From contig JBDRJK010000001.1 of assembly GCA_043814985.1 (NCBI GenBank), positions 28,083-92,082 of the forward strand: 64,000 nt of DNA, read 5' to 3'. Origin of the DNA: Candidatus Aenigmatarchaeota archaeon. GTDB lineage: Archaea > Aenigmatarchaeota > Aenigmatarchaeia > Aenigmatarchaeales > Aenigmatarchaeaceae. The position numbers and the translations under genes were made by a program. A model generated the notes under the pieces. That model did no database searches, was not told where the DNA came from, and saw only the letters and a list, made by a program, of their open reading frames with translations. Below are positions 6,378 to 64,000 of this stretch, piece by piece (the stretch's first letter is position 1; every line of letters begins with the position of its first letter).

Positions 6378-6411
6378 TTGTACTGGAAAACAAAGCAGAT
6401 TAATAACTATC

Positions 6412-6480
6412 ATGAAGACACAGATAGACTCAGTTATTTTTTATTCTTTTTATTTAATTATTCTTATTTTTTCAATTTAA
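6412..6480 (+). pseudogene. 22-aa pilin-N-terminus-like remnant (MKTQIDSVIFYSFYLIILIFSI)
   Basis: Read by hand. Resembles the start of the next pilin (MKGQSEAIVFILLFIVSIF), and its upstream sequence (ataactatcATG) resembles ataactattATG before 6536. Confidence 0.3.
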
Positions 6481-6535
6481 ATATCAGAATGTATTTTTTG
6501 CAATTTATTTAAACAAAATAACTTAGATAACTATT

Positions 6536-7036: not shown

Positions 7037-7044
7037 TTATTCTT

Positions 7045-7467
7045 ATGAAAGGGCAGTATCTAACAATAGAATATCTTCTTTTCTTCACAATCGGAGTAAT
7101 CATGATAGTCTCAGTGTACTATATTTTTTCAGGCCTCAACCAGCAGTATGAAAAGGCCACCACAGAATACCAGCTCCAGATGACAGGCCAGATGATAATG
7201 GGAAGTGTGATAAATGTGTTCGAGGCATCAAATTCAACGAACAGCCAAGTGATATATAATCTTACAATACCGACCAAACTATCCAATTGCATCTATTCCA
7301 TAAGGGAACTTAACGGCTTCCTGCTATTGGAATGTGTGGAAATAAGAGGCATGAATGCCAATTTAACACTATACAATTTCAATATTAAAATAAAAAATAA
7401 TATAATATACAGCACAAATGGTTTACTGGAAATATATGCCAATGGCGGGGAGATTGATATAAAATGA
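7045..7467 (+). CDS. Minor pilin-like protein (class III signal)
   Basis: MKG|QYLTIEYLLFFTIGVIMI, with the Q+1/E motif typical of DUF361/DUF515-type pilins. Confidence 0.8.
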   Translation: MKGQYLTIEYLLFFTIGVIMIVSVYYIFSGLNQQYEKATTEYQLQMTGQMIMGSVINVFEASNSTNSQVIYNLTIPTKLSNCIYSIRELNGFLLLECVEIRGMNANLTLYNFNIKIKNNIIYSTNGLLEIYANGGEIDIK

Positions 7468-9252
7468 AAATTGTTTTGAGGAGACCACCAAAAAAAGTAA
7501 ATCTATACAAAGTTTTCCACAAAGCTGTCGATGGATACAAAAACCTGCAAAAAAGGGCCATGGAAAACATGCCGCATGTTCAATTATTGTCCTCAATGAT
7601 AGGCGAGCCTCCCCAACCAGGAGCATATGGTCCAATGCCTGGTCTAAAACCTCATATTGGCCTAGGGAAGACGGCAGTTGAAAAAATTGCTGAGGAGGAA
7701 AAGGAAAGCGATATAATAAAAAAGAAGACTCCTTTGGCGTTCAATGAGCCTGAAGTTAATCTAAAGTCTATAAATATTGTTTACACTTTGATACAGTCTG
7801 AAGAGAGGGTACCACTTGCCAGCGCCAACATAAAATGGAGCCGTACGGAAAACTCTCTGATATACTACCTAATCGAACCTGTCCTGAACGACAGTGAAAA
7901 GAATTTACTGAAAAGAATAAAAACCGCAATAATGGAAAAACTTGACATTGACTTCACATCAATGAGAAAGGGTGAGGCAAGAACTTACCTGAAAAAGAGG
8001 TTCGAGGAAACCATAGACCTTATGACAGCAGAGCTGCCAGTTGAAAAAAGAAAGCAATTTCTCTACTATGTCGAGAGGGACTTTGTCGGTATGGATAAGA
8101 TAGAACCCATGATGCAGGACCCCAACATAGAGGATATTTCCTGCGACGGTATTGGAATTCCGCTTTTTGTATTTCATAGGAACCCTGTATTAGGAAGCAT
8201 ACAGACAAACGTGAAGTTTGAAAGCAAGGAAGAGCTTGACACATTTGTCAGCAAGGTTGCACAAAGATGTGGAAAGAATATTTCAATTGCTGTTCCTCTC
8301 ATTGGAGGCAGCTTGCCTGACGGTTCCAGAGTTCAGGCAACATTGGGAACAGACATAGCCAGAAGAGGAAGCAACTTTACAATAAGAAAGTTCACAAAAA
8401 GGCCTCTGACTCCTATTCAGTTGATAAATTTCAAGACAATCGACCCGAAGATTGCCGCGTTCCTGTGGCTGTCGATCGAGTACGGAAGGTCTATCTTAAT
8501 GAGTGGCGGTGTTGCATCAGGAAAAAACCACTCTACTCAATGCACTGTCACTTTTCATAAGGCCTGAACTTAAGATTGTTTCAATAGAAGACACTGCCGA
8601 ACTTAAACTGCCACACCCACACTGGGTTCCAGGCGTTGCCAGAACAGCAATAACCCAAATAGAGGGGAAGAAGATAGGTGAAGTGGACTTATTCGACTTG
8701 TTGAGAGAGTCATTGAGACAGAGACCTGACTACCTGATTGTAGGAGAGGTTAGGGGCAGGGAAGCGTATGTACTGTTCCAGCAAATAGCAACAGGGCACT
8801 CGAGCATGTCAACCATACACGCTGACTCTATGGAGAGGCTTATGGACAGGCTGACAACACCACCAATTAACCTGCCTGCAACCTTGATTGCAGCTTTGGA
8901 CATTGTGATATTTATTGTGAAAATGAAGTACGGACAAACCTATGTAAGAAGGATCAAAAGTATATACGAAGTCACTGGTTTTGATAGGGACAAAAACTTC
9001 CCTCTTGTCAATGAAGTATACAAATGGAATTCTTTAACAGACAAGTACGATCAAATAAACCCTTCAACTGTTCTAAAAAAAATAACTGAACAATACGGCA
9101 TTCCGCAAGAAAAACTAAAAACTGAGATCAAAAACAGGGCGGCAGTAATAAACTGGATGATAGAAAGCAGAATTGAGGACTACGTGGATGTTGCAAAAAT
9201 AATTAAGCTTTACTACGTCAGGGCGCAGGACCTATTAGATGCAATTGGATGA
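7464..9252 (+). CDS. Type IV pilus/T2SS assembly ATPase (VirB11/CpaF/ArlI family), split by a +1 frameshift in Walker A
   Basis: ORFs 7464..8567 and 8503..9252 join to give SGGVASGKTTLLNAL if one A is removed from the A6 run at 8522-8527. Downstream motifs SIEDTAE, LRQRPDYLIVGEVRG and TIHA are intact. Confidence 0.9.
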
Positions 9253-9257
9253 TTTGA

Positions 9258-10136
9258 ATGGATTTGTGGAAAACCCTTAAACCATTGTCATTCAAGTTCT
9301 TTGGAAGAAGTCTAGAGCCCTTTATAGGTTATTTCGATAGCATAAAGCCAGACTTGCAAAGAGCCAACATAGGTCTCAGCCTGCAGGAATACATCTACAT
9401 AATATTTTTTGTGATGCTTGGAACCTTCATCATAGAATTCCCCTTCGTAGTCATAATAACATCCCTACTGCTTGGGGATGCCATCAGTGCATTCCTATTA
9501 TCTTTTACCTTGACTGTCCTGATTATGATTGTCCAGTTCTTTATATTCTACACTTATCCGAGCATGTCTGCCGGAAGGAGAAGAAAGAGCATAGAAGCTT
9601 CATTGTCTTTCGCAACAACGTACATGGCAACAATAGCAAGCTCTGGAGCGCCGCCAATAACCATGTTCAAGGTTCTTGCTGACTTCGAAGATTATGGGGA
9701 GATGTCAAAGGAGGCGGGAAAAATCTACACGGACGTGGAAGCCTTTGGAATGGAGCTTGTTGCAGCCATAAGAAAAACTGCAAGGAGAACACCCTCAGAA
9801 GAACTAAAGGAGCTTTTGTGGGGTCTTGACACTATTCTAACAAGCGGCGGTAATGTAAGCGACTTTCTTCATGAGAAGTCCAGACTTTTCATAGCAGAGT
9901 ACAGGAGAAAACTGGAAAAGTATTCCAGAACCCTGTCAATGCTCATAGAAGTTTACCTGACTGTTGTACTGATTGGTTCAATATTCTTCATAATCATGAC
10001 AGCTTTGATGTCAATAATAGGAGGCGGTTCAAATCTACTCATGATATTCCTCCAGTTCCTAGTTGTTTTTGTTGTTCTGCCGTTTGTCTCAATAGGTTTC
10101 ATACTGCTAGTGAAATCAATATCGCCAACCATGTGA
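9258..10136 (+). CDS. Type II secretion system F-family membrane platform protein (TadC/ArlJ-like)
   Basis: Multi-TM protein with the MATIASSGAP...TPSEELKELL pattern; follows the ATPase. Confidence 0.9.
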   Translation: MDLWKTLKPLSFKFFGRSLEPFIGYFDSIKPDLQRANIGLSLQEYIYIIFFVMLGTFIIEFPFVVIITSLLLGDAISAFLLSFTLTVLIMIVQFFIFYTYPSMSAGRRRKSIEASLSFATTYMATIASSGAPPITMFKVLADFEDYGEMSKEAGKIYTDVEAFGMELVAAIRKTARRTPSEELKELLWGLDTILTSGGNVSDFLHEKSRLFIAEYRRKLEKYSRTLSMLIEVYLTVVLIGSIFFIIMTALMSIIGGGSNLLMIFLQFLVVFVVLPFVSIGFILLVKSISPTM

Positions 10137-10140
10137 TAAA

Positions 10141-11148
10141 ATGAATTTTAAAAATATGTTAAGTTTTGGCTCGGGAAAGCCTAAAAAAGGCGGGCCCAAA
10201 AAGGAAGGGTTAAACATAGAGTACAAATATATACCCTTGATAGTAGCAGCTATCATAATCGCCATTGGATTATTTTTCTACGAAATTCCAGCAATAATGT
10301 ACAACCTCATTGTTCTTGGGGTCATAATAGGAGTGGCCCCACTAGTACTCATTTCTTATTTTGAATATTCTAGAATCAAGGCAATAGAGGACCAGCTGCC
10401 AATTTTCTTGCTTGATCTGGCCGAGTCACAAAAGGTCGGGTTGACCCTACACGAGTCACTGAAACAAGCAGCAAAAACTGACTACGGCAAGCTGACGCCT
10501 GAGATAAGAAAGGTCTACAACCAACTGTCATGGGGCTTGAGAGTACAAGACGTGTTTTTGAATTTTTCCAAAAGAATGAAGAAGTCAAAGCTAATAGGAA
10601 GGATTGTCAGGATAATAAATGAGACCTATATATCCGGAGGGGATATAGGAAGGACAATGGAATCGACCGCATCAGACATAACAGCCATAAAGGAGGCTGA
10701 GAAGGAAAGGAAGTCAGTAACCTCGGAGCACACCTTCATCATGTATGCAATATACTTCATATTCATCGGGATTGTCATTGGTCTTTCCCAGACACTTATA
10801 CCGCTGTTGAGCATGGGAGAGCAGGCCGGAGCAGCAGGTGGGGGAATGGGGGGAATATTCGAATTCAAAGACCCCTGCGTGGCATGTGAAGGCAGCGGCA
10901 ACATATACTGCATAAACTGCTCGATTTTTGGTGTTGTCTGCCAGATGTTCAGTCTAAAGGAAGGCGGAACATGCTATTACAATGCCTTATTCCTCGTGAT
11001 GGCAGTTGTGCAGGGCATCTTCTCAGGCCTGGTGGCCGGGCAGATAGGTGAGGGCTCTGTTTATGCTGGCGTCAAGCACAGCATTATAATGACAATCTCC
11101 GGCTTTGCAATACTTATAGCCCTAATGCTGTCAGGTTTCATGGGATAA
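10141..11148 (+). CDS. Second T2SS F-family platform protein (TadB/C-like)
   Basis: IEDQLPIFLLDLAESQKVG...YGKLTPEI...SWG motifs, plus a Cys-rich external loop. Confidence 0.9.
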   Translation: MNFKNMLSFGSGKPKKGGPKKEGLNIEYKYIPLIVAAIIIAIGLFFYEIPAIMYNLIVLGVIIGVAPLVLISYFEYSRIKAIEDQLPIFLLDLAESQKVGLTLHESLKQAAKTDYGKLTPEIRKVYNQLSWGLRVQDVFLNFSKRMKKSKLIGRIVRIINETYISGGDIGRTMESTASDITAIKEAEKERKSVTSEHTFIMYAIYFIFIGIVIGLSQTLIPLLSMGEQAGAAGGGMGGIFEFKDPCVACEGSGNIYCINCSIFGVVCQMFSLKEGGTCYYNALFLVMAVVQGIFSGLVAGQIGEGSVYAGVKHSIIMTISGFAILIALMLSGFMG

Positions 11149-11149
11149 T

Positions 11150-11596
11150 ATGCTCGGTCAAATAAGAATTGAATTCATTGCTGGCATCTTGATATTTTCA
11201 ATAATAATAACGTTTGTCGTAAACCAGACCAACATAACTTTCTCAAACCTGCTGACAGATTCAAAGGCTGACATCCTGAAGGCAAAGGCCTTAAATTCAA
11301 TAACAATCCTTGTTGAGGACACGGGACAACCATCAAACTGGAATCCGTCAAATGTTGAAAGAGTCGGACTTGCATACAAGCCGCATAGCCTTTCCCGCAA
11401 CAAGATAAACATGCTCAACACTAACTGTGATATCTTGGACAATTTCGTACTTAGGACCTACAGGCTAACGATATATAATTCCACTGATTTGATGTTGTTT
11501 TGCGGCAGCGAGAATTTAAACCCGGCTGCAGCATTTGAAGTGGAGTATGTTGAGATCGAGGGAGACTACGGCAATGTCTCATTAGAGATGTGGTAA
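11150..11596 (+). CDS. Minor pilin-like protein
   Basis: MLG|QIRIEFIAGILIF class III-like N-terminus and a GQPSNW motif. Confidence 0.75.
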   Translation: MLGQIRIEFIAGILIFSIIITFVVNQTNITFSNLLTDSKADILKAKALNSITILVEDTGQPSNWNPSNVERVGLAYKPHSLSRNKINMLNTNCDILDNFVLRTYRLTIYNSTDLMLFCGSENLNPAAAFEVEYVEIEGDYGNVSLEMW

Positions 11597-11597
11597 A

Positions 11598-12761
11598 ATG
11601 AAAGGTTTTGTATATTTGTTGGAGATAGCAATCGCAGCAATACTTATGGTAGTTGTCCTGAGCACTTTCTTTGCCATCAGAGTGAAACAGAGCTGGGAAA
11701 GCTCTGACCTCATAGACGCCGGAAACAACATTCTTAGCTACATAAAACAAGACGACAATTATTTTGTAGACATACTGGATGGAAACTTTTCAGATATGAT
11801 TGAAAATATTAAGGTGGCAAGCATTGGTTATGGTATCAGCATCAAAGGCTCGCCAAAGTCAAACATAATAGTTGGCTGTGCTCAGAATTATCAATGTGCT
11901 TATATTCAAAGCCTTTTGACAGATGTTTATTTGAACGAACGCCAAATCACTTTTCTTGTTGAGGAATTCAACATCACGGCCGGAGTTCCGAATTACTATG
12001 ATGCAATTGTTTTTGTTGATTATAATGGATACACAACATATAAAACAGAAATCATTGATTTTTTGAACACTGGAGGCATGGTTCTTGGAATAAACCCAGT
12101 AATCAACAACAATGATTTTTATGACATTTTCGGCTTAAGTGAAAGCCTTAATCCCCTTCCCCCTCCAGGCGAGTCTAACCATTTCACAGCATATGACCCT
12201 GCAATAGAGGACATAGAAAAGTATTTCATGGGAATTGGTTTTGACCTAAATAGAAGCTGGTATATCTGGGAGGATGAGTGGACAGTTGATTATGGTACGA
12301 ATTATATAAACTTATCAAGAGGCGGTGAGGAGAGGAATTTACGTTACGAAGAGGATACTATTGTCCTGAGAGGACCAGATTCCATTGATTATTCATTCCA
12401 AGTAAAGGAAATATGGTCTGGGATTCAAAAAGCAAATGTCCAAACCTTGAGTACTGGCTTTGTTTTTGAAGATTTTTCAGATGCAATCCCTGTTGAAGGC
12501 AATAAAAACGTTGTTGGTTATTTTTCAAACAGTTATGCAGAAATGGCATCAAATGGAAGCGCAATCTGGATTTCAGACTTTCCGTTTAGCAGCGAATATG
12601 TAACATTGTTAAAATCTGCCATAATTTCAAGGTGTGATGAATGGGTCGCCAAGGGAGTTTACACAGAAAGGGAGACTGTAACAACATCATCCTTCTTTTC
12701 TTTGTGCTGTGACATGCCAGAAACAGCAGAATTGGAAATCACCTTGTGGAATATTGTCTAA
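11598..12761 (+). CDS. Large pilin-like/adhesin protein with class III signal
   Basis: MKG|FVYLLEIAIAAILM N-terminus followed by a large acidic extracellular domain. Confidence 0.75.
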   Translation: MKGFVYLLEIAIAAILMVVVLSTFFAIRVKQSWESSDLIDAGNNILSYIKQDDNYFVDILDGNFSDMIENIKVASIGYGISIKGSPKSNIIVGCAQNYQCAYIQSLLTDVYLNERQITFLVEEFNITAGVPNYYDAIVFVDYNGYTTYKTEIIDFLNTGGMVLGINPVINNNDFYDIFGLSESLNPLPPPGESNHFTAYDPAIEDIEKYFMGIGFDLNRSWYIWEDEWTVDYGTNYINLSRGGEERNLRYEEDTIVLRGPDSIDYSFQVKEIWSGIQKANVQTLSTGFVFEDFSDAIPVEGNKNVVGYFSNSYAEMASNGSAIWISDFPFSSEYVTLLKSAIISRCDEWVAKGVYTERETVTTSSFFSLCCDMPETAELEITLWNIV

Positions 12762-21804: not shown

Positions 21805-21805
21805 A

Positions 21806-26001: not shown

Positions 26002-26052
26002 ACAAATCATTTGTCACTTTGATTTATATGTATATTTAGAAAAAAGTATTTA

Positions 26053-51938: not shown

Positions 51939-52961
51939 ATGACAATAAAGGAACCTAGAAAAATTATAATCGAAGCTCTGATGAAGAATCCAGAAGGTTT
52001 GACACTTCTTTCACTAGCTGAGGTAACTGGATTGCACCGACACACAGCCACCAAATATGTCCATGAATTGATTGGAGCAGGGGTTGTCTACCAGAGAAGT
52101 GTCGGGGCTGCAAAGCTCTGTTATTTGAAGAAAAAAATAGAGACTGAAACTGACGAGAAAAGGGTTCTGGATATGCTTAGGAAAAAGAGGAAAGGAAGCG
52201 TCCAAATGAAGCTTTTGATTGCTGTGGTTGTCTTGTCGTTCCTGTTGAGCGAATCTGTGATCATAGCATATGAGAACAGCTCCTTCATCAACAATACCAA
52301 CTTCTCGAACACCAGCCCAGTCACATCAAGCCTCAATAATTCTGACTTGAATATCAATTTCAATATAACTGAAAATATCAACAGTACACAAAATAGTTCT
52401 GTCGAGCCATCGACAAATGAAACTGAGTTTAATAATAATGGAACTGTCGGAGGAACTAACGGAACATCCCTAAACACTACTAATGAAACAATAGAAGCCC
52501 CGATTATTGAAAATACAACCAATGTAACTGAGCCTGTAAATGCTACAGAGGACATTAATCAGACTATAGACCTTAACTTGACTTTTAATGAAACTTTTGA
52601 AGAAAATGAAACTGTTTTTGAAAACATAACAGAAATTATTGAAAGCATAACTTCTGAAATAGGAAATATTACATCTATAGAACCGATTCTTGATGTAAAG
52701 TTGCTGTATCCGCAGAAAATAATAAGGGGTGAAAGCCTGGATATAAGAGCTGACCTTGAAAACAGCGGTTATTTGGCTAAAAATGTTGTTCTCAACTGGC
52801 TGCTACCTGCTGGTTTTAACATGGTTTCTGGGAATATGAGTGAAAATTGCGGGGATTTGGATACTGGTGGTTCCTGCTATTCAGAGATTAGCGTTATGAC
52901 TAATCTGACAACAGGCATTGGCCTGAATGAAATAAGAGTTGTGGTTGATTATGAAGAGTAG
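51939..52961 (+). CDS. Membrane-tethered regulator: N-terminal wHTH, single TM, Asn/Thr-rich stalk, C-terminal Ig-like (CARDB/DUF11-like) domain
   Basis: GLTLLSLAEVTGLHRHTATKYVHELIGAGVVYQRSVGAAKLCY (wHTH), then LLIAVVVLSFLLSESVIIA (TM), many N-x-S/T sequons, and a C-terminal beta-rich domain with a Cys pair. Confidence 0.85.
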   Translation: MTIKEPRKIIIEALMKNPEGLTLLSLAEVTGLHRHTATKYVHELIGAGVVYQRSVGAAKLCYLKKKIETETDEKRVLDMLRKKRKGSVQMKLLIAVVVLSFLLSESVIIAYENSSFINNTNFSNTSPVTSSLNNSDLNINFNITENINSTQNSSVEPSTNETEFNNNGTVGGTNGTSLNTTNETIEAPIIENTTNVTEPVNATEDINQTIDLNLTFNETFEENETVFENITEIIESITSEIGNITSIEPILDVKLLYPQKIIRGESLDIRADLENSGYLAKNVVLNWLLPAGFNMVSGNMSENCGDLDTGGSCYSEISVMTNLTTGIGLNEIRVVVDYEE

Positions 52962-55900
52962 CACTAAGTCAGGACAGAGCCAATTATTGATTCCCCTACT
53001 CTTGATTATCTCATCGGCAATGGTATTTGCCACAAATGTCACTCTAAATTTGACCAAAAACACAACACCATCAGGAGCTTTTGTAGGCATTCCAAACAGT
53101 ACAAATGAAACTAATAATTCGCAAGAATTTGTATTCCCAATAGAGGTTTGGGCTGAAACCTACATTGGTATGAACATAGATGGAAATGTTGTTAAAGCTC
53201 ACTTGTTCTTGGACAACCAAACAAAAATTGAGAACCACCAAATCAATCTTTACCTGAATGGTGTTTTCTTTGGTTCTGATTTAACTGATGTTGAAGGCAT
53301 TGCTGAATTCACTGTTTCTGAATTTGGGGAATATAAGATATTTGCTGTTTTTGAAGGCAGAGACTTCTTGAACCCATCTGAAATCAACCTAACTGAGATA
53401 ATTCAAGAAAATGAGGTTATTTTCGAGATTCTTGGAACAGAGCAGGGTGATATTGAGATTGGGGAACCTGTTAAATGGGAGAAGAAATTCAGATTATTTA
53501 ACCCGAATGACAGGGATGCCTTAGCAGATTTCGAATTGGACTTTCCTGAAGATGCTTTTAGCGTTAATGTCGCTGAAAAGGACACGAAAAAGATGTTGAA
53601 TTTGATTAAGAAATCCATTAGGGAATGGCTCAAAGCCAATGAGAGTAGGGAATATATGCTGGAATACTTCACAGATTCACCAGTCGTAATCGAGGAACTG
53701 GTAAACAAGTACAAGAAAGTGATTAACATCAGCTCTCCGATACACTATGAGAATGTTCCTGTCTACACTGACATTGAAGAGACTTCCCAAGATTCCATAA
53801 GGATTTACTGGATTGTTGATGGTGAGAGAGTAGATATTACTAATAATCCTTCATTCAATGTTATTTTCATTGATTCCAATGGAAATGGCCTAATAGATAG
53901 AGTAGAGTGGGTTGTTCCACATCTTTCAGACCAGATATTCGAAATTTCAATTACTGTCTTGAATGTAGATACTCTTGTAAGAGATGGTGATAACTGGGTA
54001 GTCGCATTCAATACAACTGGAACAGCCAATTTGACCATTAATTCCACAAATGCTGGATGGACTGAGTTTCTGACAGACAACACAAGCACATTTGACGAAA
54101 TGTTACTGTTGGATATTAATTGTGGCAATGTTTCTTTGAAAGACTCATTACAATTGATTGATGAATTTGATAATGTTTACAATTACTCTGACTTAACTGC
54201 AAATGACACAATAGACATAAAGCATTTGTTTGTTGAGAATTATTCTTGCAATGATACTGGTCTCATAAGCAATAACATGTTAAAAGCTGGTTATGCTGCT
54301 CTACAATTCACCTTCGGAGACCAGATTGCTTATGCTTATGATGCTGCAGTAGTATGTAACTGGTCAACAGATACTGTTAACTGGGCAGATCAACAAGGTG
54401 GTGGTGGTTCTGCATGGGGAACTTCAAATACAACATGGAATCTAGGATATAATTGTAGCGAAGCAGGCGGTCCTTCAACTGGCTGCTATATCGCAAACAT
54501 AACAATAAACATGTATGGTGCTTCGGCGAGCCCTGCATCTGGTGGATTAGGTTTTGTAATATTTAGCAATGACTCAACACAATTCTTTCCTCTTGCGATT
54601 AATGTGGGTGGCGCATATACTTATGGTCCTGTAGATTCTTGTGGAGCTAATAACAACTATACTGGTGGAACAGGTTATCCTGGTAGTACACCAAACAGCA
54701 CTCCAAATACATGTAACATAAGTTTTACTGACTGGTTTAATGTAACATCATACACGGTTAATTGGTATATACCTGGTAAGGGTTCTGTGTCAATTCCAAC
54801 AATTAGTTACCAGTGGTGTTGGGAAGACGCGCTTCCAAAATTAGATAATCCAGCTGTTAATGGCACACAATCAGGATATAGTGCAGGTTGGGGAAGTATA
54901 TTCAACTTTTCAGTAGAAATATGGGAACCTCAAGGCAGTGAAAGTAATGTGAGTTTATGGTATACTCCAACTGCAGGAACAGGTTGGATGTTTGCAGGAT
55001 CAAGAAACGATACTTCGCCTCCAACTTCTTCTCCAGGCAACTTGACTAATTTTACTATAAACTATAGCTGTAGTGGAGGAACAATTACAGACAGTTTATC
55101 AAATGATTTGGGTGTTGTTGGGGCAGCAAAATACTATAAATTCAATGCTACTGACCCTTACTCCAATAAAAACGATACTTTTGATTCTTATGGAAACATA
55201 TATTTCACACCTACAAAAGATGATGTAAATGTTGTGAACGAGACTCCTACAGCTAATATTATTATAAACAGAAGTGACACAACTGATTTTGTTGTAGAGG
55301 TATATGACAGGGAAAAACAGAGTTACGGTAGTGGACAGTCTGGAAAAATATGGGTGTCTACCTATGAATATGATCAGAACACCAGTTATTTGGTAAGTAC
55401 TAATTCCACTGGGCATTTAGTACAAACATTTACGAATGCTATCTGGTGTGGGGACGAAAAATATTATCTTGGTGTTCATAAATGGAGTGGTGGAACAGAC
55501 AGTGATTCTTGTGTACAAAACAATGTAACTGAAAGTTCAAATTTCACCCTGTTGGGTAGTTTATACAACACATTAAACATTCCAGATGGAAGTTCAAATT
55601 TCACCCAAGCTCAAACAATAGATTTTACTGCAAGTGTGGCTGATGACTGTAGTGTTGGAAGAACAGCAACTTCCACAATTAACATCACTATGGTTAATAA
55701 CGACACTGAATATTTTTGTATTGCTTCAGCAGCTGGTGAATGTTCTATAAGCACAGACATTTCTTTCCCGACAGGATGGTACAATGTTACCATAGTTTCA
55801 AACAAATCTTACCATAATGATGGTTATTCTATTGATCAGGATGTTTTCTATCTATTACCTTACAGGAATGTTTTCAATGAGTCAGTAAATCCAGACTCTG

Positions 55901-58900
55901 CATATTGGAGCTATCCAAATTGGAACTTCTCTGTTTTAGCAACTTCAGGCGACAACGACCAAATGAATGTATCGCTTTATCTAAGGAAACAAGGTGAAAG
56001 TTATTCAGAATGCACTGGGTGTTTTAATCAGACCCCAACAATTTGTGTTAACTGTGAAAACCAGTCAGTATTCTGGTATCGTAATTTCACTGAACCAGAT
56101 TCAGGTAGCAATTGGTACTATCAGTTCAGGATGTATAACAACCTAACTGGTGAACTTGAAGACCAAACAACCGAGCATTCATTCTACGTGGACAGTATTC
56201 CAGATGAAAAAATATATTTGGAGAACGTAACTCAAAGCCCGTCTTCAGGGCAATGGGGTGGAACTCCATTCACTTTCAATATTACTGTTAACACGACAGG
56301 TATAAACAATGTAAGTGTATTCCTTTGGACTTCAGACAGTGCTACTGGTCCATGGTCATTGGTGGAATACCAGAACTACACTATCCCTCCTGGTGGCTGG
56401 CAAATAATAAATTACACGACATATTTCGACTGTAATGACATTGACACTGACAAGTATTTCTTCTTCAATGCAACCAACTACAACATGTCAACAAATACAA
56501 CAACACCCCAAAGTTTTGAAATAACAAGAGATAGAATAGAGCTTGATTACTACTGGGGGCATGACTCGACAGCTAACAGGTCAGGTGACCAGACTGATTT
56601 CTTGCTTTTCCGTGCAACCAATGTTAATGGCAGTGACATGGGAAGCTTCCCAATAAAATACTCTGTAACATCTGGTAATTCAACAGAAACATATTATACA
56701 GATAATAATTTTGTAACTAATACAAATAGTACTGGATTTGCTGAATTTTATTTCAATGCTACTTGTTTGAATGATTACATTGGAGCACCAAAATTCCAAG
56801 TCAGAGAACAGCAATGGAAGGCTCAGTTAAATGACTCTGAACTAGATTGTTACTATCAGAATGATAGTTCTGATATCTGGTATAGAAACATGAGTGTTAT
56901 GGGTAATATCCTGATAACACTATCAAACCCCGACGGAACTGAAAATGTGACTCAGGAGAATATAATGACTTTCCTTGGTTCCAGCGATGATGACTGTGGG
57001 GATTCTCTGAAATTGAACTATACCTTTGGATATGAGGAGATAAAGTACTATGCAAACAATACTCCGACAACTGGTTTTGACTGTGGTAATTCAACTCTGA
57101 TTGGTGCCAACGCTTATCGTTGCTACTGGCAGACTGACACTGATACGCCTGTCCAGGATTACAATGCATCAATGTTTGTGAACAGAATTGGTTACTATCC
57201 CAACCAGACATTGGATGATGCTTCCAGAGGATGGCTGTTCTATGTTGATGCACTAAGGCAATTCACAAACATAAGTGTTGTGCCTTCGTCAGCCCTATGG
57301 GATACAACAGACTGGAACTTCTCCGTCATTGCAACATCAGGAGATTACAACAATGAAACAATTGTGCTGCAATTGAAACAGGGTGCTGGTGCATGGCAGA
57401 ACTGTGAAGATGCTTTAGCACAATGCTACAACATGACTCCAACCAACTGTACACACTGCATAAATGAGACATACTTCTGGCATGCCAACTTCACTGCAGA
57501 CGATGCAGGAACGTGGTTCTACAAGTTCCAGATGAACAACAGCGATACCTATGTCATAGACGAGGAAACAACTGGCACTGATAGTTTTGACGTGCTGGCA
57601 AGCGATGTAAAGATATATATGGAGAATGTCACCAAGTATCCAACGACAGGAAGCTGGGGTGGTGGCAACTTCACTTTCAATGTTACTGTTAACACGAGTG
57701 GTATAAACAATGTTTCTGTATTCCTGTGGACTTCCAACAGCTCCACTGGGCCTTGGACATTAATTGAAGAGCAGAATTATACTATTCCACCAGGAGATTG
57801 GCAACAATTTAATTTTAGTAATGCTTATTATTGTGATGATATAGGGACCAATTATTTCTTCTTCAATGCAACGAACTATAACCTGTCGACAAACATGACA
57901 AGTCCCCAGAGCTTCACAGTGACAAAGGATACTGTGATATTAGAATACATAGAGGGTAACAACACAATTGCAAACAGGTCAGGAAGTCAAACTCAGAATC
58001 TATCTATAAGATTGAGTGATGGCAACGGTACATACCTAACTGATTTCAATATGACCTACTATGTGGAGACAAATAGTTTCGAATATGATTCTGGTAACAA
58101 TGTGACTTCTGACTCTTCTGGTTATGCCAATTATTCATTTGAACCAACATGTTCCGGTCCAAGATACGAAGTCGGGAATCAAAACTGGAAAACTGCTGCC
58201 TTGGAACAGCAGTGTTATCAGACCAATGACACTGACACTGCAGGGTTTGCCTTGAATCTGACAGTGATGGGCGACTTCAACATTAGCTTCAATTATCCTG
58301 AAACTGTTAACCAAAGTCTTGGCGATCAGGTAATATTCGAATCTGTCATAAAGGACAATTGTAATGTGGAATTAGGGGGAATAGAAGTAAGATACAATGC
58401 AACAAATGAAAACTTCAATGACGAATGTTCTTTGGTTACAAGTCCAGCCACTGGTCTTTACAGGTGTTTTGAGGGCGGAACAAACGGCTGGGATTCAACA
58501 GGAGCTAGGCAGGGTTGGTACAACGCAACTATTAACGCTACCAAAGATTTCTACTGGAACAATGTCACAACCAAAGCAGAGGAAGGCCTTGGTCATTTCT
58601 ATCTATACAGAAAACCAACATTGAGTGGAGATATTGTTGTTCCTTCAATTGGAGGATGGGCTTTGGACAGAAACTTCTCAGTCAATGTTACTGATGATCC
58701 TATTGACAATGTTACTGTTTTCCTATGGCATAGGAGCTCTGGAGGAACTGGAAATGTCTGGGAACAGATAAGCACATCTAAATTATGTTCTGATTGCGAC
58801 AATACCAATGTGAACTGGACTGATGTCAGTTACAACTGTTCATTCGCGTCTGCTGGAGGTTCTGTTGATTATAAGTTCAATGCCACTGATTTGGATTTGA

Positions 58901-61900
58901 ATAATACTGAAGCTTCAGGATCGTTCACTGTTAATTACGACAATGTCAGTGTTACCAACATAACACCTGTTGCTACTGCCACTATTAACAGAACAGACAC
59001 CACATCCTTTATCATCGGACTATATGATTTGGACAATAGCACTTCTCCAAATAACACACAAAGTAAGATATGGTTCACAACAACTGATGCAGCCACATGG
59101 GAAAGCGATGTTGCTGCTCCAACGATTTATTCAAACTCAACTGGTCATTTGAACAGGTCAATGACAGCAAGTGGTTGGACCAACCTTTTGGGTTGTGACA
59201 ATACATACAGCCTGGGTGTTCATTATTGGAAGGGTGGTTCTTACGGATCCAACTGTCCTCCAGGTTTGGTTGACAACATAACCTCCTCTATTATATTCAC
59301 CTTGATGGGAGAATTGAGCAATACCATTTACTGGCCTGTTGGAACCCAAAACTACACTGTCGGAAGCGGTATCCACTTGAATGGAACTGTTGTCAGGGAT
59401 AGCAGCTGTGGTGCAGCTACTGGCATAAGCGTTCTATATAACATTACAAACGGGACTCATGCGTACAGCTGTGACGGTGTTCACAGGGGCAACGGTGTTT
59501 ACAACTGCAGCTGGGATTCCAGCGACAAGGCAACAGGTTGGTACAATATCACAATGATATCTTACGGCAGCAATTACCATAATGGGACTGATGTTCAGAG
59601 TGATGCATTCTACTTGAGAAGTGGAATTCAATTAGAAGACATTTCAATGGAACCTGTTGGTGGTGGGAGCTATGGATATTCACCGTTTAACTTTACTGTA
59701 AATGTAACATCATCAGACAATGAGAATGTCACTGTTTATTTGTATTTGCAAAATGTTTCTGGCTGGTTCCTGGAGAATCAAAGTTCCTGTGTAAGTTGTG
59801 ATAACACCTACTTCAAGTTCTCCAAGGATTATGACTGTTCGAACATTGGTTCTTGGGATTACAAGTTCAATGCCACATCTGTCACAGGAGCAGTTAACAA
59901 CTCATTATCATCCAATAGCTTTACTGTAACAACAGATACAATAAGTATTAACTATGGTTCTGGCAACGAGTCTTACGTAAACAGAAGCAACACTAATCCT
60001 GAATACGAGATTCCACTTGTTGTCCAAGTTTGGGATACTGTCAAGAACGAGTTGACAACTGACATAACACTAAGCAACATAAACGCATATGTTACAACAA
60101 GCGGTTCAAGTTGGATGGAGTTGTCTGGTGGGCTGGGAACTGTTGTCAATAACACAACTCACTTTAATGTAACATTCGATCCTAACTGTTCATTCTCCGC
60201 AGGAAAAAGAAACTGGAAGTTCAACATATCTGGTGAGACTTGTTATGGTGATGCTGAATCCAGCAACTATAATGTAACTGTTGTTGGTAATCTGTCTGCT
60301 TATTACATGAGTCCTACTGGAGGAGCAATATATGATTTAGGAGATAATGTTCCATTGTTGGGTAATCTAACAGATGAGTGTAGCAATGACATCATCAATT
60401 CAAATGTCGGGTTCCAGCTGAACTCAAGTCCTTCCACAAGTTATTTCTGTACTTCACCTGGCAATGTCACTGGTAACTTCTATTCATGTGATTGGGATTC
60501 AAACAGTTATGATGTAGGCTATTATAATGTCACAATGATATCTTGGAATGATTCTTATGTCAATGGAACAGACTTTGAAACAGATGCAATCGAGATAAAG
60601 TCTATACCTGATCTGGATGTTGCTGATGTCAACCCAAGAGCGGAGGGGTGGGTCAAGACATTCAACTTTACTGTAAATGTAAGCGATAATGCTGGTGACA
60701 CTGTCAATGTTTATCTTTGGGAATCTACTGATGGAAGCGAACCATGGATTCAGATAGGTGGAATAAATAACTGCACAACTTGCGTTAACGAAACCATGAC
60801 ATGGAACAAGACATACATTTGTGATGATGTCGGGAACAACAGGGTATTCAAGTTCAATTCAACAGACACAGAAGGTAACAACTATAGCACATCTCTAGTG
60901 GCGGGTGATTATGTTGGTGGAAGCAACACTTTCAATATTGAGAAGAATAACATAGGCATTGAATACATAATTGGAAATGAAACCAATGCTAGTACTGTCG
61001 ACCCTGCATTGTTTATTGTGAGGGTGTATGACATTGACAATTCATCCAGTTACTATATGACACCTAGCATTGATATTTCATTCAATGTAACCAAACAAGG
61101 TTTGAGTAATACTTTCTTTACTGTTGGCAGCAATACAAGCAATGCAACAGGTCACATTATCTACTATTTCACACCAGACTCAAGCTTTGCTTCTGTAAAA
61201 CAAAACTGGACAGCATTTACTTCTGCAGGTGAGGGATGCTACAAACTAAACCAAAGCGATTATTACAATGTAACAACCCAAACACACGTTCCAAAAATAG
61301 AGAACGAGACAGTTGATCCTCAAGTAGGAGGATGGGGAGACGCCAGACAGTTTAATGTGTCGATATACGATGCCAATGACACTGCCGTTGTAAGATTGTG
61401 GAAGTCAACAAGCACTGGAGGACCTTGGACATTTGTAGCTTATCAGAATTATACTGATGTTGGAAATTGGGAAAATGTATCCTTCTTGATTAATTTCACT
61501 TGCACTGATTACAGAACAGAGCCGTGGTACTTCAAGCTAAATGTTAGTGATGATTTCAACAACACGAACTCGACTGATACACCAGAACCCGAGAACAATT
61601 ACACTGTCAACAAGGATGCTGTAATATTTGAAGAATTTTATGGCAATAACTCAACTGCGAATCGTATTGGAAGCCAAACCGATTTATTGTCTTTAAGATT
61701 AAGAGATGGAAACGGAACCTATTTGACTGATTTCAATGCCACTTTTTATGTGACTACTGACGGAGTCAGCTGGCCTGGTAGTGGTGTTGTCAATCAGAGC
61801 AATAGCAGTGGTTATGTTCACTATAACTTTAATCCCATTTGTTCACCAAAGAACCAAGTAGGTGACCAGATGTGGAAGGTTGAAGTCGGTGACTCGTGCT

Positions 61901-64000
61901 ATCAGACCAACAGCACCAACACATCAGATTTATTCTTGAACCTGACAGTTATGGGCAACATAAACCTTACTTTCACTAGGCCTGATGGAACTACAAACTA
62001 TACACAGGAAGATCCAATACTGTTCCAGGGTTATACTTACGATGATTGTGGAGGTGCTATTGCGCCAACAGTAAAGTTCTATGCAAACAATTCAACTGAT
62101 TATGGCTTTGATTGCGGTAGTGTACAAAAAATAGGTGAAAACGTATTTGAGTGTACCTGGCAAACCCAGATAACAACACCAAGGGGTTGGTACAACACAA
62201 CAATGGATGCGAACATAACAGGCCATTATAACAACTTCAGCATAAACTCTGGCACTTCTGGTTTGTTCTACTTGAACCCAATATATAAAATAGAAAACAT
62301 TTTAGGAACACCAACTACAGATGGTTGGGGATACACCAACTGGAACTTTTCAGCAATAATATCTTCTGGCGATCCTGACACAAGCTATCCTTTGGAGATA
62401 TTCATGAACAAAGGTTCCCCTGACTTCACAACAGCTTGTTCAGGTTCAACATGTTTTAACCAGACAACTGTAGAGTGCATTTATCCCGAATGTGTCAACA
62501 AAACAGTTTTCTGGTACAGGAACTTCTCTTACAATGATCAGGGAACATGGTTCTTCAAGTTGAGCTTAGCAGCTGAAGAAACTTCTGGTAATGATATTGT
62601 GACAGTGGTAAAAGATGATATACTCATAAACCATTCGTTTGGTAATGGTGAGAGTGTAAACAGAAGCGGTGATCAATCAAAGCTTTTGGTTGTTTTTGTA
62701 AATGATACGGACAGAAACCTGTCAGCAGCAAATCCTTTTGTAAATGTTTATTTCAATGTAACCAACAACACAGCCAGCAATTATTTAATTTACGGCGCTA
62801 ACTCTACAAACACAACTGGTTATTCCAATGCAACATTTAACCCGAACTGTGATTATTCCAATGGAACTCAGAATTGGTTTTCCTATGTTTCAGGGGATTC
62901 AAACTACAATGATGCGAATTCCAGTATATTCAATATAACAATCTACGGAGACCTAAACCCATCTGAAATTAGAACTTACAACACAACGCATGAAACAAAT
63001 TATTTCTTCCATGGTCAAAATGTAAACATTACTGGAATTGTAGAGGATGACTGTGGTAACAGAATCTCAAATGAAACAGGAATAAACGTAACATTCGAGG
63101 TTTTCAAAAATAATACTTATCCAGCATCGGCAGATACGTACTGTTTTGATGTAACCTATCTTGGAAACGGAATATACAGCTGCCTATGGGACACCAAAAC
63201 ATATGAGAATGATACTTACAAGATAAGAATGGATGCAAGCAATGTAAGCTTCCATAACAATGGGACATATTCGAAGCCCGGAGCATTTGGTTTGAATGTA
63301 CCTCCAAACACGCCTCCAGTTGTAAGCGATGGGAGCGTAACACCAGACCCGGGTGGCTGGGGTTCAACATTCAACTTCTCAGTGAATGTAACAGATGGGG
63401 ATGAATTCCAAAACGTTACTGTTCATTTCTGGGAATCTCCTGACGGAAGCGAGCCATGGACCTTAATAGAAGATCAAACATGCACAGATTGTGTTAACAC
63501 TACTGTAAAAACTGTTTACTTCAGCAAAAACGATTACAGCTGCCAGCAAATAGGAATTAGATATTACAAGTTCAATGCAACTGATAATTCAAGTGAGGCA
63601 AATGCAGGTTCTGATTCTGATGATGGACCTTACAGTTTTAACCTGACAAGGGATAATGTTGAATTCATTAATCCTGTTGGTAGTGCTGGTACTGTAAACA
63701 GAAGTGGTAGTCAGGACATATTCCTTGCAGTCCGGATTAACGACACCACTAAAGGTGTTTTAGTTGAATCTAATGTAACCGCTGGAAGGTTCTGGATAAC
63801 TTATGATGAACTAAACTGGAACAGTGGAAGCAGTAACAGAACCTCTAACTCATCTAGTTATGTAAACTACACATTCGACCCAACATGTACACCTACAAGG
63901 TACAATGTAAGCAATGCACAACAATGGAAAGTAGGAGTTTTGAATGATTCTTGTTATATTGATGCTAACAGTTCTAATTACACCTTGACAATAAAGGGTG
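52951..64000 (+). CDS. Giant secreted/surface glycoprotein, >3,680 aa, 3'-partial
   Basis: ATG at 52951 overlaps the regulator's 3' end by 11 nt; MKSSTKSGQSQLLIPLLLIISSAMVFA signal. The frame was open at every position spot-checked through 64000 (..NYTLTIKG), consistent with its absence from a stop-terminated ORF track. Confidence 0.92.
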   Translation, partial: MKSSTKSGQSQLLIPLLLIISSAMVFATNVTLNLTKNTTPSGAFVGIPNSTNETNNSQEFVFPIEVWAETYIGMNIDGNVVKAHLFLDNQTKIENHQINLYLNGVFFGSDLTDVEGIAEFTVSEFGEYKIFAVFEGRDFLNPSEINLTEIIQENEVIFEILGTEQGDIEIGEPVKWEKKFRLFNPNDRDALADFELDFPEDAFSVNVAEKDTKKMLNLIKKSIREWLKANESREYMLEYFTDSPVVIEELVNKYKKVINISSPIHYENVPVYTDIEETSQDSIRIYWIVDGERVDITNNPSFNVIFIDSNGNGLIDRVEWVVPHLSDQIFEISITVLNVDTLVRDGDNWVVAFNTTGTANLTINSTNAGWTEFLTDNTSTFDEMLLLDINCGNVSLKDSLQLIDEFDNVYNYSDLTANDTIDIKHLFVENYSCNDTGLISNNMLKAGYAALQFTFGDQIAYAYDAAVVCNWSTDTVNWADQQGGGGSAWGTSNTTWNLGYNCSEAGGPSTGCYIANITINMYGASASPASGGLGFVIFSNDSTQFFPLAINVGGAYTYGPVDSCGANNNYTGGTGYPGSTPNSTPNTCNISFTDWFNVTSYTVNWYIPGKGSVSIPTISYQWCWEDALPKLDNPAVNGTQSGYSAGWGSIFNFSVEIWEPQGSESNVSLWYTPTAGTGWMFAGSRNDTSPPTSSPGNLTNFTINYSCSGGTITDSLSNDLGVVGAAKYYKFNATDPYSNKNDTFDSYGNIYFTPTKDDVNVVNETPTANIIINRSDTTDFVVEVYDREKQSYGSGQSGKIWVSTYEYDQNTSYLVSTNSTGHLVQTFTNAIWCGDEKYYLGVHKWSGGTDSDSCVQNNVTESSNFTLLGSLYNTLNIPDGSSNFTQAQTIDFTASVADDCSVGRTATSTINITMVNNDTEYFCIASAAGECSISTDISFPTGWYNVTIVSNKSYHNDGYSIDQDVFYLLPYRNVFNESVNPDSAYWSYPNWNFSVLATSGDNDQMNVSLYLRKQGESYSECTGCFNQTPTICVNCENQSVFWYRNFTEPDSGSNWYYQFRMYNNLTGELEDQTTEHSFYVDSIPDEKIYLENVTQSPSSGQWGGTPFTFNITVNTTGINNVSVFLWTSDSATGPWSLVEYQNYTIPPGGWQIINYTTYFDCNDIDTDKYFFFNATNYNMSTNTTTPQSFEITRDRIELDYYWGHDSTANRSGDQTDFLLFRATNVNGSDMGSFPIKYSVTSGNSTETYYTDNNFVTNTNSTGFAEFYFNATCLNDYIGAPKFQVREQQWKAQLNDSELDCYYQNDSSDIWYRNMSVMGNILITLSNPDGTENVTQENIMTFLGSSDDDCGDSLKLNYTFGYEEIKYYANNTPTTGFDCGNSTLIGANAYRCYWQTDTDTPVQDYNASMFVNRIGYYPNQTLDDASRGWLFYVDALRQFTNISVVPSSALWDTTDWNFSVIATSGDYNNETIVLQLKQGAGAWQNCEDALAQCYNMTPTNCTHCINETYFWHANFTADDAGTWFYKFQMNNSDTYVIDEETTGTDSFDVLASDVKIYMENVTKYPTTGSWGGGNFTFNVTVNTSGINNVSVFLWTSNSSTGPWTLIEEQNYTIPPGDWQQFNFSNAYYCDDIGTNYFFFNATNYNLSTNMTSPQSFTVTKDTVILEYIEGNNTIANRSGSQTQNLSIRLSDGNGTYLTDFNMTYYVETNSFEYDSGNNVTSDSSGYANYSFEPTCSGPRYEVGNQNWKTAALEQQCYQTNDTDTAGFALNLTVMGDFNISFNYPETVNQSLGDQVIFESVIKDNCNVELGGIEVRYNATNENFNDECSLVTSPATGLYRCFEGGTNGWDSTGARQGWYNATINATKDFYWNNVTTKAEEGLGHFYLYRKPTLSGDIVVPSIGGWALDRNFSVNVTDDPIDNVTVFLWHRSSGGTGNVWEQISTSKLCSDCDNTNVNWTDVSYNCSFASAGGSVDYKFNATDLDLNNTEASGSFTVNYDNVSVTNITPVATATINRTDTTSFIIGLYDLDNSTSPNNTQSKIWFTTTDAATWESDVAAPTIYSNSTGHLNRSMTASGWTNLLGCDNTYSLGVHYWKGGSYGSNCPPGLVDNITSSIIFTLMGELSNTIYWPVGTQNYTVGSGIHLNGTVVRDSSCGAATGISVLYNITNGTHAYSCDGVHRGNGVYNCSWDSSDKATGWYNITMISYGSNYHNGTDVQSDAFYLRSGIQLEDISMEPVGGGSYGYSPFNFTVNVTSSDNENVTVYLYLQNVSGWFLENQSSCVSCDNTYFKFSKDYDCSNIGSWDYKFNATSVTGAVNNSLSSNSFTVTTDTISINYGSGNESYVNRSNTNPEYEIPLVVQVWDTVKNELTTDITLSNINAYVTTSGSSWMELSGGLGTVVNNTTHFNVTFDPNCSFSAGKRNWKFNISGETCYGDAESSNYNVTVVGNLSAYYMSPTGGAIYDLGDNVPLLGNLTDECSNDIINSNVGFQLNSSPSTSYFCTSPGNVTGNFYSCDWDSNSYDVGYYNVTMISWNDSYVNGTDFETDAIEIKSIPDLDVADVNPRAEGWVKTFNFTVNVSDNAGDTVNVYLWESTDGSEPWIQIGGINNCTTCVNETMTWNKTYICDDVGNNRVFKFNSTDTEGNNYSTSLVAGDYVGGSNTFNIEKNNIGIEYIIGNETNASTVDPALFIVRVYDIDNSSSYYMTPSIDISFNVTKQGLSNTFFTVGSNTSNATGHIIYYFTPDSSFASVKQNWTAFTSAGEGCYKLNQSDYYNVTTQTHVPKIENETVDPQVGGWGDARQFNVSIYDANDTAVVRLWKSTSTGGPWTFVAYQNYTDVGNWENVSFLINFTCTDYRTEPWYFKLNVSDDFNNTNSTDTPEPENNYTVNKDAVIFEEFYGNNSTANRIGSQTDLLSLRLRDGNGTYLTDFNATFYVTTDGVSWPGSGVVNQSNSSGYVHYNFNPICSPKNQVGDQMWKVEVGDSCYQTNSTNTSDLFLNLTVMGNINLTFTRPDGTTNYTQEDPILFQGYTYDDCGGAIAPTVKFYANNSTDYGFDCGSVQKIGENVFECTWQTQITTPRGWYNTTMDANITGHYNNFSINSGTSGLFYLNPIYKIENILGTPTTDGWGYTNWNFSAIISSGDPDTSYPLEIFMNKGSPDFTTACSGSTCFNQTTVECIYPECVNKTVFWYRNFSYNDQGTWFFKLSLAAEETSGNDIVTVVKDDILINHSFGNGESVNRSGDQSKLLVVFVNDTDRNLSAANPFVNVYFNVTNNTASNYLIYGANSTNTTGYSNATFNPNCDYSNGTQNWFSYVSGDSNYNDANSSIFNITIYGDLNPSEIRTYNTTHETNYFFHGQNVNITGIVEDDCGNRISNETGINVTFEVFKNNTYPASADTYCFDVTYLGNGIYSCLWDTKTYENDTYKIRMDASNVSFHNNGTYSKPGAFGLNVPPNTPPVVSDGSVTPDPGGWGSTFNFSVNVTDGDEFQNVTVHFWESPDGSEPWTLIEDQTCTDCVNTTVKTVYFSKNDYSCQQIGIRYYKFNATDNSSEANAGSDSDDGPYSFNLTRDNVEFINPVGSAGTVNRSGSQDIFLAVRINDTTKGVLVESNVTAGRFWITYDELNWNSGSSNRTSNSSSYVNYTFDPTCTPTRYNVSNAQQWKVGVLNDSCYIDANSSNYTLTIKG
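54880..64000 (+). repeat. Degenerate tandem protein-domain repeats within the giant ORF
   Basis: About 11 copies of a (G)W(G)-x3-4-(F/W)NF(S/T)V module start (near 54886, 55905, 56251, 57295, 57652, 58651, 59660, 60645, 61327, 62322, 63352), plus recurring NR(S/I)G(D/S)Q and Cys-pair motifs. Confidence 0.85.

Follow-up and report, generated by a model that had tools for sequence, protein, structure and literature searches.

An open reading frame of more than 11 kb from an Aenigmatarchaeota archaeon probably encodes the N-terminal part of a SPEARE-type giant cell-surface protein

What kind of protein is encoded by an open reading frame (ORF) that occupies the last 11 kb of a 64,000-nucleotide stretch of archaeal DNA is the question raised by the locus described here. 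The stretch, referred to below as the window, derives from a Candidatus Aenigmatarchaeota archaeon (assembly GCA_043814985.1, contig JBDRJK010000001.1, positions 28,083 to 92,082), and an earlier note, made from the sequence alone, had drawn attention to the ORF at 52951-64000 as that of a giant, modular surface protein. The window is archaeal, since it encodes a thermosome, topoisomerase VI, Spt5, L11 and FtsZ; several aminoacyl-tRNA synthetases are encoded as well. The window sequence is contained in groundwater and biofilm metagenomes. The analysis presented here indicates that the ORF probably covers no more than the N-terminal two-thirds of a giant cell-surface protein of the SPEARE type, belonging to an Aenigmatarchaeota (DPANN) archaeon that is tiny and probably depends on a host.

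The ORF itself was considered at the outset. On the plus strand, to which all features of the giant gene belong, the frame 52939/52951..63999 is free of stop codons up to the window end, and consists of 3,683 codons when counted from the ATG at 52951 and of 3,687 codons when counted from a TTG at 52939. With the base composition of the window, a stop codon would be expected every ~15 codons, and the probability that none would occur over the length of this ORF is ~1e-112 (log10 P of -112). The opposite strand and the other frames in the region contain only ORFs of 118 aa or less. The ATG at 52951 was taken as the start, because orthologues (N-termini MKSSAK... or MKSN...) begin at the equivalent methionine. 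The ORF is not an artefact of assembly, since 52951..63999 is covered at ~100% identity, and without frame breaks, by contigs from three independent metagenomes (two from groundwater and one from biofilm). Searches for DNA repeats of more than 78% identity inside the giant ORF found none, and this result, together with the agreement of the three metagenomes, ruled out misassembly through repeats. Thus, the ORF is real, and the internal stops that the earlier note had named as evidence against its proposal are absent from the translation. Two short contigs from a groundwater metatranscriptome, identical to 54481-54681 and 57716-57900, provide a hint that the giant gene is transcribed.

The segment 52951..63999 represents the first 3,683 codons of the gene, which is still open at the window end. 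An identical protein on record, P0002, runs on to residue 5,801, a position within a repeat module. The C-terminal residues of P0002, TCLPGT, can be aligned in frame with NCAPGT in an orthologue that continues further, which indicates that P0002 was cut by the end of its contig and not by mutation; a frameshift at this position was rejected on the basis of the same in-frame alignment. The closest relative, P0003, is labelled Candidatus Aenigmatarchaeota, is partial, and is 68.6% identical to P0002 over 5,800 aa. The protein on record has an isoelectric point (pI) of 4.1 and an unglycosylated mass of 641 kDa for its 5,801 residues. N-x-S/T sequons number 239 in the window part of the protein, three times the 82 expected from composition, and 384 in the 5,801 residues, and the window part contains 73 Cys residues. 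The very dense sequons and the richness in Cys described by the earlier note are therefore genuine properties of the protein.

Searches of sequence databases with the protein were largely negative. No Pfam family was matched in residues 1-3,687 at E<=1, and none is precomputed for the 5,801-aa record; when the head and the repeat module described below were searched against Pfam, NCBIfam and PDB sequences, nothing useful was returned. LamG, β-propeller, protease-like and toxin-like regions were not found in the 5,801 residues on record, and RTX repeats, PGF-CTERM and the thioester motif CGEQ are absent from them.

The N-terminus of the protein reads MKSSTKSGQSQLLIPLLLIISSAMVFA|TNVT. Residues 10-30 constitute the only hydrophobic segment in the 5,801 aa, and the 384 sequons follow it. 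Hydropathy, the N-termini of orthologues and a comparison with pilins point to a predicted signal peptide at residues 1-28 (52951..53034), composed of an n-region, MKSSTKSGQSQ, a 16-residue h-region, LLIPLLLIISSAMVFA, and a likely signal-peptidase I site, VFA|T. A V/A-x-A|x-N-x-T site, with a sequon directly after the V/A-x-A, is conserved among the orthologues. An alternative, class III-like (prepilin-type) site, SG|QS, is situated at residues 8/9 and is considered further below. From the sequence, the short hydrophobic stretch and the conserved V-x-A site favour ordinary Sec processing over class III processing. The protein would be exported through Sec, with the signal peptide most likely cut after VFA (Ala27). 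The signal region is followed by a linker at residues 29-68 (53035..53154) that is dense in sequons (15 per 100 aa) and was modelled as disordered.

The head of the protein begins at residues ~69-157 (53155..53421) with an immunoglobulin (Ig)-like β-sandwich, which was modelled by AlphaFold with a predicted local distance difference test (pLDDT) score of ~90 and gave a weak match to a PGS-family Ig-like domain. Several further β-sandwiches, at residues ~158-473 (53422..54369), form a conserved head core that was also modelled with confidence (pLDDT >90). Pfam contains no model for the head core. When residues 1-640 were used as the query of an exhaustive HMMER search, 1,071 representative clusters were obtained, nearly all of which matched only residues ~230-470, and in these relatives the core is joined to varied bodies of the β-helix/NosD, RCC1-propeller or LamG/DUF2341 type. 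Foldseek searches with the head returned generic multi-sandwich proteins only (integrin legs, complement macroglobulin (MG) domains and adhesins).

Within the most conserved stretch of the head core lies the loop DSNGNGLIDRVEW (residues 308-320; 53872..53910), which the earlier note had described as Ca-binding-like. It is an exact match to the PROSITE EF-hand pattern PS00018, is the only match to that pattern in the 5,801 aa, and is kept in 11 of 35 aligned relatives. For these reasons the proposal that this EF-hand-type loop may bind Ca is a reasonable one. The head ends with a Gly/Ser/Cys-rich domain at residues ~474-640 (54370..54870), containing 24.6% Gly plus Ser and five Cys residues, which was modelled with low confidence. 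The presence of this domain had been correctly noted; its supposed uniqueness was not borne out, as counterparts occur at ~47% identity in P0003, P0053 and P0066. It is common to such close relatives only. In a separate observation, most of the head-core relatives (P0032, P0035, P0037, P0040, P0044, P0103, P0114 and others) were found to possess an N-terminal transmembrane (TM) segment with a conserved motif, [KR]-P-x-[IL]-T-G-[FMY], immediately after it; this motif may serve DPANN surface proteins as a signal for processing or anchoring that is specific to the lineage.

From residue 641 onward (54871..63999 in the window) the protein is an array of tri-domain super-modules of ~335 aa each. 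Iterated hidden Markov models (HMMs) revealed three domain types, designated A, B and C, each of ~95-105 residues, that follow one another strictly as A-B-C. The 5,801 residues contain 18 A, 16 B and 15 C domains (49 in total by HMM) in at least 16 super-modules, and 11 A, 10 B and 8 C domains are situated in the window. There the order is ABC, AABC, AABC, ABC, ABC, AB, ABC, ABC, AB(cut). Over the 5,801 residues, A is doubled in two super-modules and C is missing from one. The array appears to be old, since the super-modules are only 19-43% identical to one another. The 11 degenerate, β-rich modules with paired Cys residues that had been proposed earlier correspond in number to the 11 A-type domains of the window; the repeat array and its β-rich character were confirmed, and the repeating unit is the A-B-C triplet of ~335 aa, not a single repeat.

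A structural model was obtained for the super-module at residues 1088-1435 (56212..57255) with an alignment of 46 super-modules from the window protein and related proteins (profile A1). The AlphaFold model has a mean pLDDT of 90.8 and a predicted template modelling score (pTM) of 0.78, and consists of three all-β, macroglobulin/Ig-like sandwiches. Foldseek aligned the model best with tandem MG domains (complement C5/C3, cobra venom factor and α2-macroglobulin; E ~6e-10) and also matched it to the Ig-like repeats of an ice-binding bacterial adhesin of 1.5 MDa. Conserved Cys residues occupy fixed columns of the alignment: A has three, B two and C three, and those of C are present in more than 90% of modules. 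Each super-module contains ~22 sequons, or ~6.5 per 100 residues; conserved among these are N-R-S in an invariant 'NRS' motif and N-A-T in 'KFNATD'.

The part of the protein beyond residue 5,801 was read from orthologues. The orthologue L002 is situated mid-contig in a 197,673-bp contig of an uncultured archaeon, and all 20,948 bases fetched from it form one open frame. Residues 2764-5801 of P0002 align with L002 as one collinear segment of 3,091 residues at 62.6% identity, and the last 1,836 residues of the L002 frame are identical to the first 1,836 of P0020. The end of the orthologue as described here is therefore L002 joined to P0020, and none of the records found spans the distance from signal peptide to ATPase. 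The order in P0020 is the rest of the array, a β-sandwich base of ~2,150 residues, a Pro/Gly-rich linker, two sandwiches, one TM helix and a cytoplasmic domain of ~370 residues. The base gave weak matches to MG4 and NPCBM_assoc, and MG2 was matched in the relatives P0017 and P0019. The cytoplasmic domain matches DUF87, the HerA central domain (E 9e-7), and HerA in the PDB (4d2i; E 6e-6), gives weak matches to the NCBIfam models HerA, CedD, TraB, TraD and TraC, and has a coiled coil at its end. Joined in this way, the orthologue has 8,889 residues when counted from the start of L002, and its total length is ~11,000; a window gene that continues like the orthologue would have a product of the same size, ~11,000 residues.

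The same order, [ABC]n followed by a base of ~2,100-2,190 aa, a TM helix and an ATPase, was found in seven other proteins, whose sources are Aenigmatarchaeota, a nanohaloarchaeon and a parvarchaeon, among them L003/P0304 (from another Aenigmatarchaeota metagenome-assembled genome), P0296 (labelled Nanohaloarchaea) and P0297 (labelled Parvarchaeota). For the TM-ATPase module by itself, 572 relatives were found, at 41-89% identity. By collinear orthology, the window genome would be expected to encode the C-terminal anchor and ATPase that are present in the orthologue. The earlier note had looked to the C-terminus for a TM anchor and for LamG or peptidase domains. A TM helix is indeed present in the orthologue; what follows it is a cytoplasmic HerA/VirB4-like ATPase.

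Two further observations concern these tails and arrays. In the Logan contig L005, from another run, a tail that is 89% identical shows a one-base frame change at 780-960, between the TM helix and the ATPase, which is explained either by an error in sequencing or by a true splitting of the fused gene. The giant gene of L002 contains two recent internal tandem duplications, of 1.2 kb at 97.6% and 1.8 kb at 91.8% identity (1-2623, 10992-15929), which may reflect ongoing module expansion or an effect of assembly; the window gene has none. The Logan fragments P0184 and P0202 were considered as the ATPase tail of the window organism and rejected, as they come from other runs.

Giant proteins of this general design have been described previously. 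The SPEARE proteins of Nanohaloarchaeota contain up to 8,553 aa, most of them outside the cell; close to the C-terminus there is a TM helix, and the cytoplasmic part is conserved and has relatives in Aenigmarchaeota, Woesearchaeota and Micrarchaeota; their ectodomains contain at least one laminin-G domain (Hamm et al. 2019, PMC6642349). In SVXNc_0300, of 9,409 aa, a Sec signal peptide is followed by ~75 Ig-like domains, then by a TM helix and a VirB4/TraG-like ATPase, with a coiled coil at the end, and a role in adhesion and in secretion into the host was proposed for proteins of this type; LamG was not treated as defining in that study (Reva et al. 2023, PMC10266531). Named members are NAR1_1133 (5,998 aa), Ca. 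Nanopetramus SG9 AOV94740.1 (8,553 aa) and SVXNc_0300 (PMC6642349, PMC10266531). The window protein resembles these in its DPANN host, its very long ORF (more than 3,000 aa), its N-terminal export signal (the type of which is predicted) and its mostly extracellular character. Its acidic ectodomain (pI ~4) consists almost entirely of tandem Ig-like β-sandwiches, and its collinear orthologue has the single TM helix, cytoplasmic HerA/VirB4-like ATPase and terminal coiled coil. In addition, the nanohaloarchaeal P0296 (7,378 aa) has an A-B-C array at 36% identity and the same tail. The window protein differs from the published members in the strict A-B-C grammar of its stalk and in its head, which is a separate conserved module with an EF-hand-type loop, and its orthologue is larger, at ~11,000 aa. 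These results support the description of the protein as giant, modular, exported and surface-located, with sequon- and Cys-rich β-sandwiches, and it is plausibly a long host-reaching adhesin.

Several points weigh against its assignment to the SPEARE type. LamG was not found by Pfam in residues 1-3,687 or in the 5,801-aa record; among the published features that can be judged on the available part of the protein, it is the only one lacking. The C-terminal anchor and ATPase of the window genome itself were not seen, as the contig ends inside the array, and no HerA/VirB4-like ATPase is encoded in the window. The relatives P0017 and P0019 have the array and a base of ~2,500 aa, and end in a TM helix and a basic tail without an ATPase. 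P0029 (3,406 aa, complete, in L007) has the same N-terminus and head, with neither an A-B-C array nor a C-terminal TM helix, and the ATPase in L007 is the product of a separate 728-aa TM-ATPase gene, 2.4 kb downstream of P0029, with a separate coiled-coil gene as well. The RNA evidence is confined to the two short contigs, which could result from DNA carry-over, and binding, glycosylation, disulfide formation and Ca binding are properties that we infer.

Some of these points raise the possibility that the window genome encodes a giant of the same family without the ATPase tail, ending in a TM helix and a short basic tail or having no anchor, with the HerA-like ATPase encoded by a separate neighbouring gene. 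P0017 and P0019 and the separate genes of L007 are precedents for this, and stand-alone versions of the TM-ATPase, of ~725 aa, are common. Against this, the two closest collinear relatives that reach the end (L002 joined to P0020, and L003, which is the same as P0304) are fused to the ATPase, and seven of the seven other A-B-C array proteins with a known C-terminus end in it, so that a tailless giant is considered unlikely here. The protein could also be a structural component of the envelope or glycocalyx, in the form of an S-layer-like coat or sheath, instead of an adhesin directed at a host. Extreme glycosylation potential, acidity and repetitive β-sandwiches are also typical of archaeal S-layer glycoproteins, and no ligand-binding domain was identified, the head giving only generic β-sandwich fold matches. 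It is apparent, however, that no module matches an S-layer family, an outcome on which the earlier note had made its proposal depend: no such match was obtained with Pfam or NCBIfam, and profiles A1 and A2 gave no PDB sequence match. Moreover, a single polypeptide of ~11,000 residues and ~90 serial domains is a fibre and not a lattice unit, the head core is joined in relatives to binding modules of the β-helix, RCC1 and LamG types, and a passive coat would leave the fusion to a cytoplasmic, motor-type ATPase unexplained. A structural coat is accordingly regarded as very improbable.

The earlier note had also raised the possibility that the KSG|Q sequence is a class III cleavage site, through which the protein would be displayed by the type IV system in the window. 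According to this alternative, the leader MKSSTKSG would be cut before Gln9 by an archaeal prepilin peptidase, and the retained N-terminal helix would either anchor the head in the membrane or feed it into a type IV pilus-like filament, the protein then being a pilus-borne or doubly tethered mega-adhesin. The locus in question (5940..12761, plus strand) contains five pilin-like ORFs, one T2SSE ATPase and two T2SSF membrane proteins. The five pilin-like ORFs have three-residue leaders (MKG|VSAV, MKG|QSEA, MKG|QYLT, MLG|QIRI and MKG|FVYL), and three of them share with the giant protein a Gln after the cleavage site; like known class III substrates (EppA/PibD, [KR]G|Q), the giant protein has its G|Q-S before a hydrophobic stretch. 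Every orthologue N-terminus contains G-Q-S-Q-L unchanged, whereas the remainder of the hydrophobic region differs among them, and the N-termini of P0014 and P0029 read R-G|Q-S-Q-L. Among the proteins that possess this head core, a few are genuine pilin fusions, with unmistakable pilin N-termini (MNKG|VSSVIAAV, MKG|ISSSIAAI and MKG|VSSAVAAV), and P0029, which has the N-terminus of the giant protein, lacks a C-terminal anchor.

Several features oppose this reading. The residue at -2 is Ser, Thr or Pro in the window protein and its closest relatives, and Lys is present only at -3 (K-S-G|Q in the window protein), so the charge of class III substrates at -2 is missing. The leader would have eight residues, versus three in the pilins of the window genome, and the hydrophobic stretch after the putative cut has 16 residues, versus 21-26 in the five pilin-like ORFs, and no Glu at +3 to +6. 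It is followed by the conserved V/A-x-A|x-N-x-T site, which is compatible with signal peptidase I. The type IV pilus genes are 40 kb from the giant gene, a scan of ~50 window ORFs revealed no A24 prepilin peptidase, the orthologue has a C-terminal anchor with an ATPase, and the published relatives are described with Sec signal peptides (PMC10266531). The Pilin_N, Class_IIIsignal and Arch_flagellin models did not match the giant N-terminus; this test is insensitive, since a genuine pilin used as a control, P0094, also failed to match, and one window pilin matched. Taken together, the invariant GQSQL lends the class III site weak support, against which stand the Ser at -2, the 16-residue run and the V/A-x-A site, and cleavage of this kind is rather doubtful. 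Somewhat less likely again is the more specific proposal that the invariant [KR]-x(0,1)-G-Q-S-Q-L is a divergent class III signal by which the head is docked to a pilus-like filament or the membrane, the whole being a pilus-coupled, motor-tethered mega-adhesin. If it were true, a glycoprotein of ~11,000 residues would be held by a pilin-type helix at one end and by a TM helix and HerA-like motor at the other.

Two further observations were made in the window. The T2SSE ATPase domain is encoded by an ORF at 8503-9252, which overlaps a 367-aa ORF at 7464-8567 that has no Pfam match; the latter could be the N-terminal part of the T2SSE protein in another frame, or a separate gene. In addition, a rhomboid-family intramembrane protease is encoded at 21184-21804 on the minus strand.

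The fold matches made comparison with two other groups of large proteins of interest. The RTX adhesin MpIBP of Marinomonas primoryensis (PDB 5irb, 4p99), the repeats of which were matched by Foldseek, is likewise a fibre, of ~100 Ig-like domains, by which a distal binding region is kept at a long distance from the cell. The giant protein differs from it in that it has no RTX nonapeptide repeats, its export would not be by type I secretion, and its anchor would be a C-terminal TM helix instead of an N-terminal outer-membrane plug; in addition, it would be N-glycosylated, and is not Ca-rigidified between every domain. Membership in the RTX adhesins was rejected on the basis of the missing RTX repeats. 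The A-B-C module finds its best fold match in the MG domains of α2-macroglobulin and of complement C3/C5, and relatives of the giant protein hit Pfam MG2/MG4. The similarity is one of fold only, with an identity of 7-11%, and CGEQ, the bait region and the TED/CUB domains are lacking; membership in the thioester proteins was rejected, since CGEQ does not occur in the 5,801 aa.

The giant gene is preceded, at 51939..52961 on the plus strand, by a gene for a protein with a winged helix-turn-helix (wHTH) domain, one TM helix, a sequon-rich stalk and an Ig-like domain. This gene overlaps the start of the giant gene by 11 nt, and the pairing is conserved in relatives. The partner in L004 (1207-1998) is 36% identical (E 3e-48) and has the same 11-nt overlap with the giant gene; in L007 (9145-10008) the partner is in pieces, as two small wHTH genes and a separate TM-Ig gene. 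The gene for this membrane-tethered wHTH protein is a conserved partner of the giant gene, and its product probably acts with the giant protein in regulation or sensing. It was also observed that contigs in all three DNA runs match only the ~50 bases at 52932-52982, where the wHTH gene ends and the giant gene begins with its signal, and from there on differ, with the reading LLIPLIVIIT. The samples therefore contain a related population in which the junction of the two genes is almost base for base the same.

The surroundings of the giant gene in L007 were also of interest. The cluster at 10001-27313 encodes the 3,406-aa giant, four small membrane or secreted proteins, the 728-aa TM and DUF87 ATPase, a 503-aa coiled-coil protein, a 325-aa CARDB-like TM protein and a ParA-like ATPase, and is a split version of the fused design. 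Upstream of this giant gene, at 5565-7955 on the minus strand, a 796-aa gene contains an intein (Intein_splicing, LAGLIDADG_3) and gives a faint match to DUF87.

The SPEARE-type reading suggests how the protein may be organized and used. The ectodomain would be a heavily N-glycosylated, acidic, long string of β-sandwich domains. At its distal end, the head would comprise one Ig-like domain, the multi-sandwich core with one EF-hand-type Ca loop and the Gly/Ser/Cys-rich domain, carried on a stalk of at least 16 A-B-C super-modules that may be stiffened by the conserved cysteines and by glycans. The missing part would consist of more A-B-C modules, the ~2,150-aa base, one membrane helix and, on the cytoplasmic side, a HerA/VirB4-like P-loop ATPase with its coiled coil. 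Anchored at its C-terminus, such a fibre would project the head some hundreds of nm from a very small cell, where it could contact a host cell or surface; this estimate uses ~90 domains at ~4 nm each, the figure for an Ig-like domain. The ATPase may serve transport across the contact, in the direction of secretion or of uptake, as has been proposed (PMC6642349, PMC10266531).

The SPEARE, or giant membrane-anchored, design has already been published (PMC6642349, PMC10266531), and the window protein adds to it a member from groundwater Aenigmatarchaeota and is not a new kind of protein. The A-B-C grammar, the widespread head core without a domain model and the conserved regulator partner are, to our knowledge, new. 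The tiny DPANN archaea live in attachment to other microbes, and the leading candidates for the means by which they hold and exploit their hosts are giant surface proteins. We know of no SPEARE-type giant protein with a demonstrated function. The locus leaves unchanged the general picture of what such giant proteins are, and offers testable handles on them: a grammar of head, A-B-C stalk, base and motor, a head module that has no Pfam model, an overlapping regulator gene and a question of N-terminal processing.

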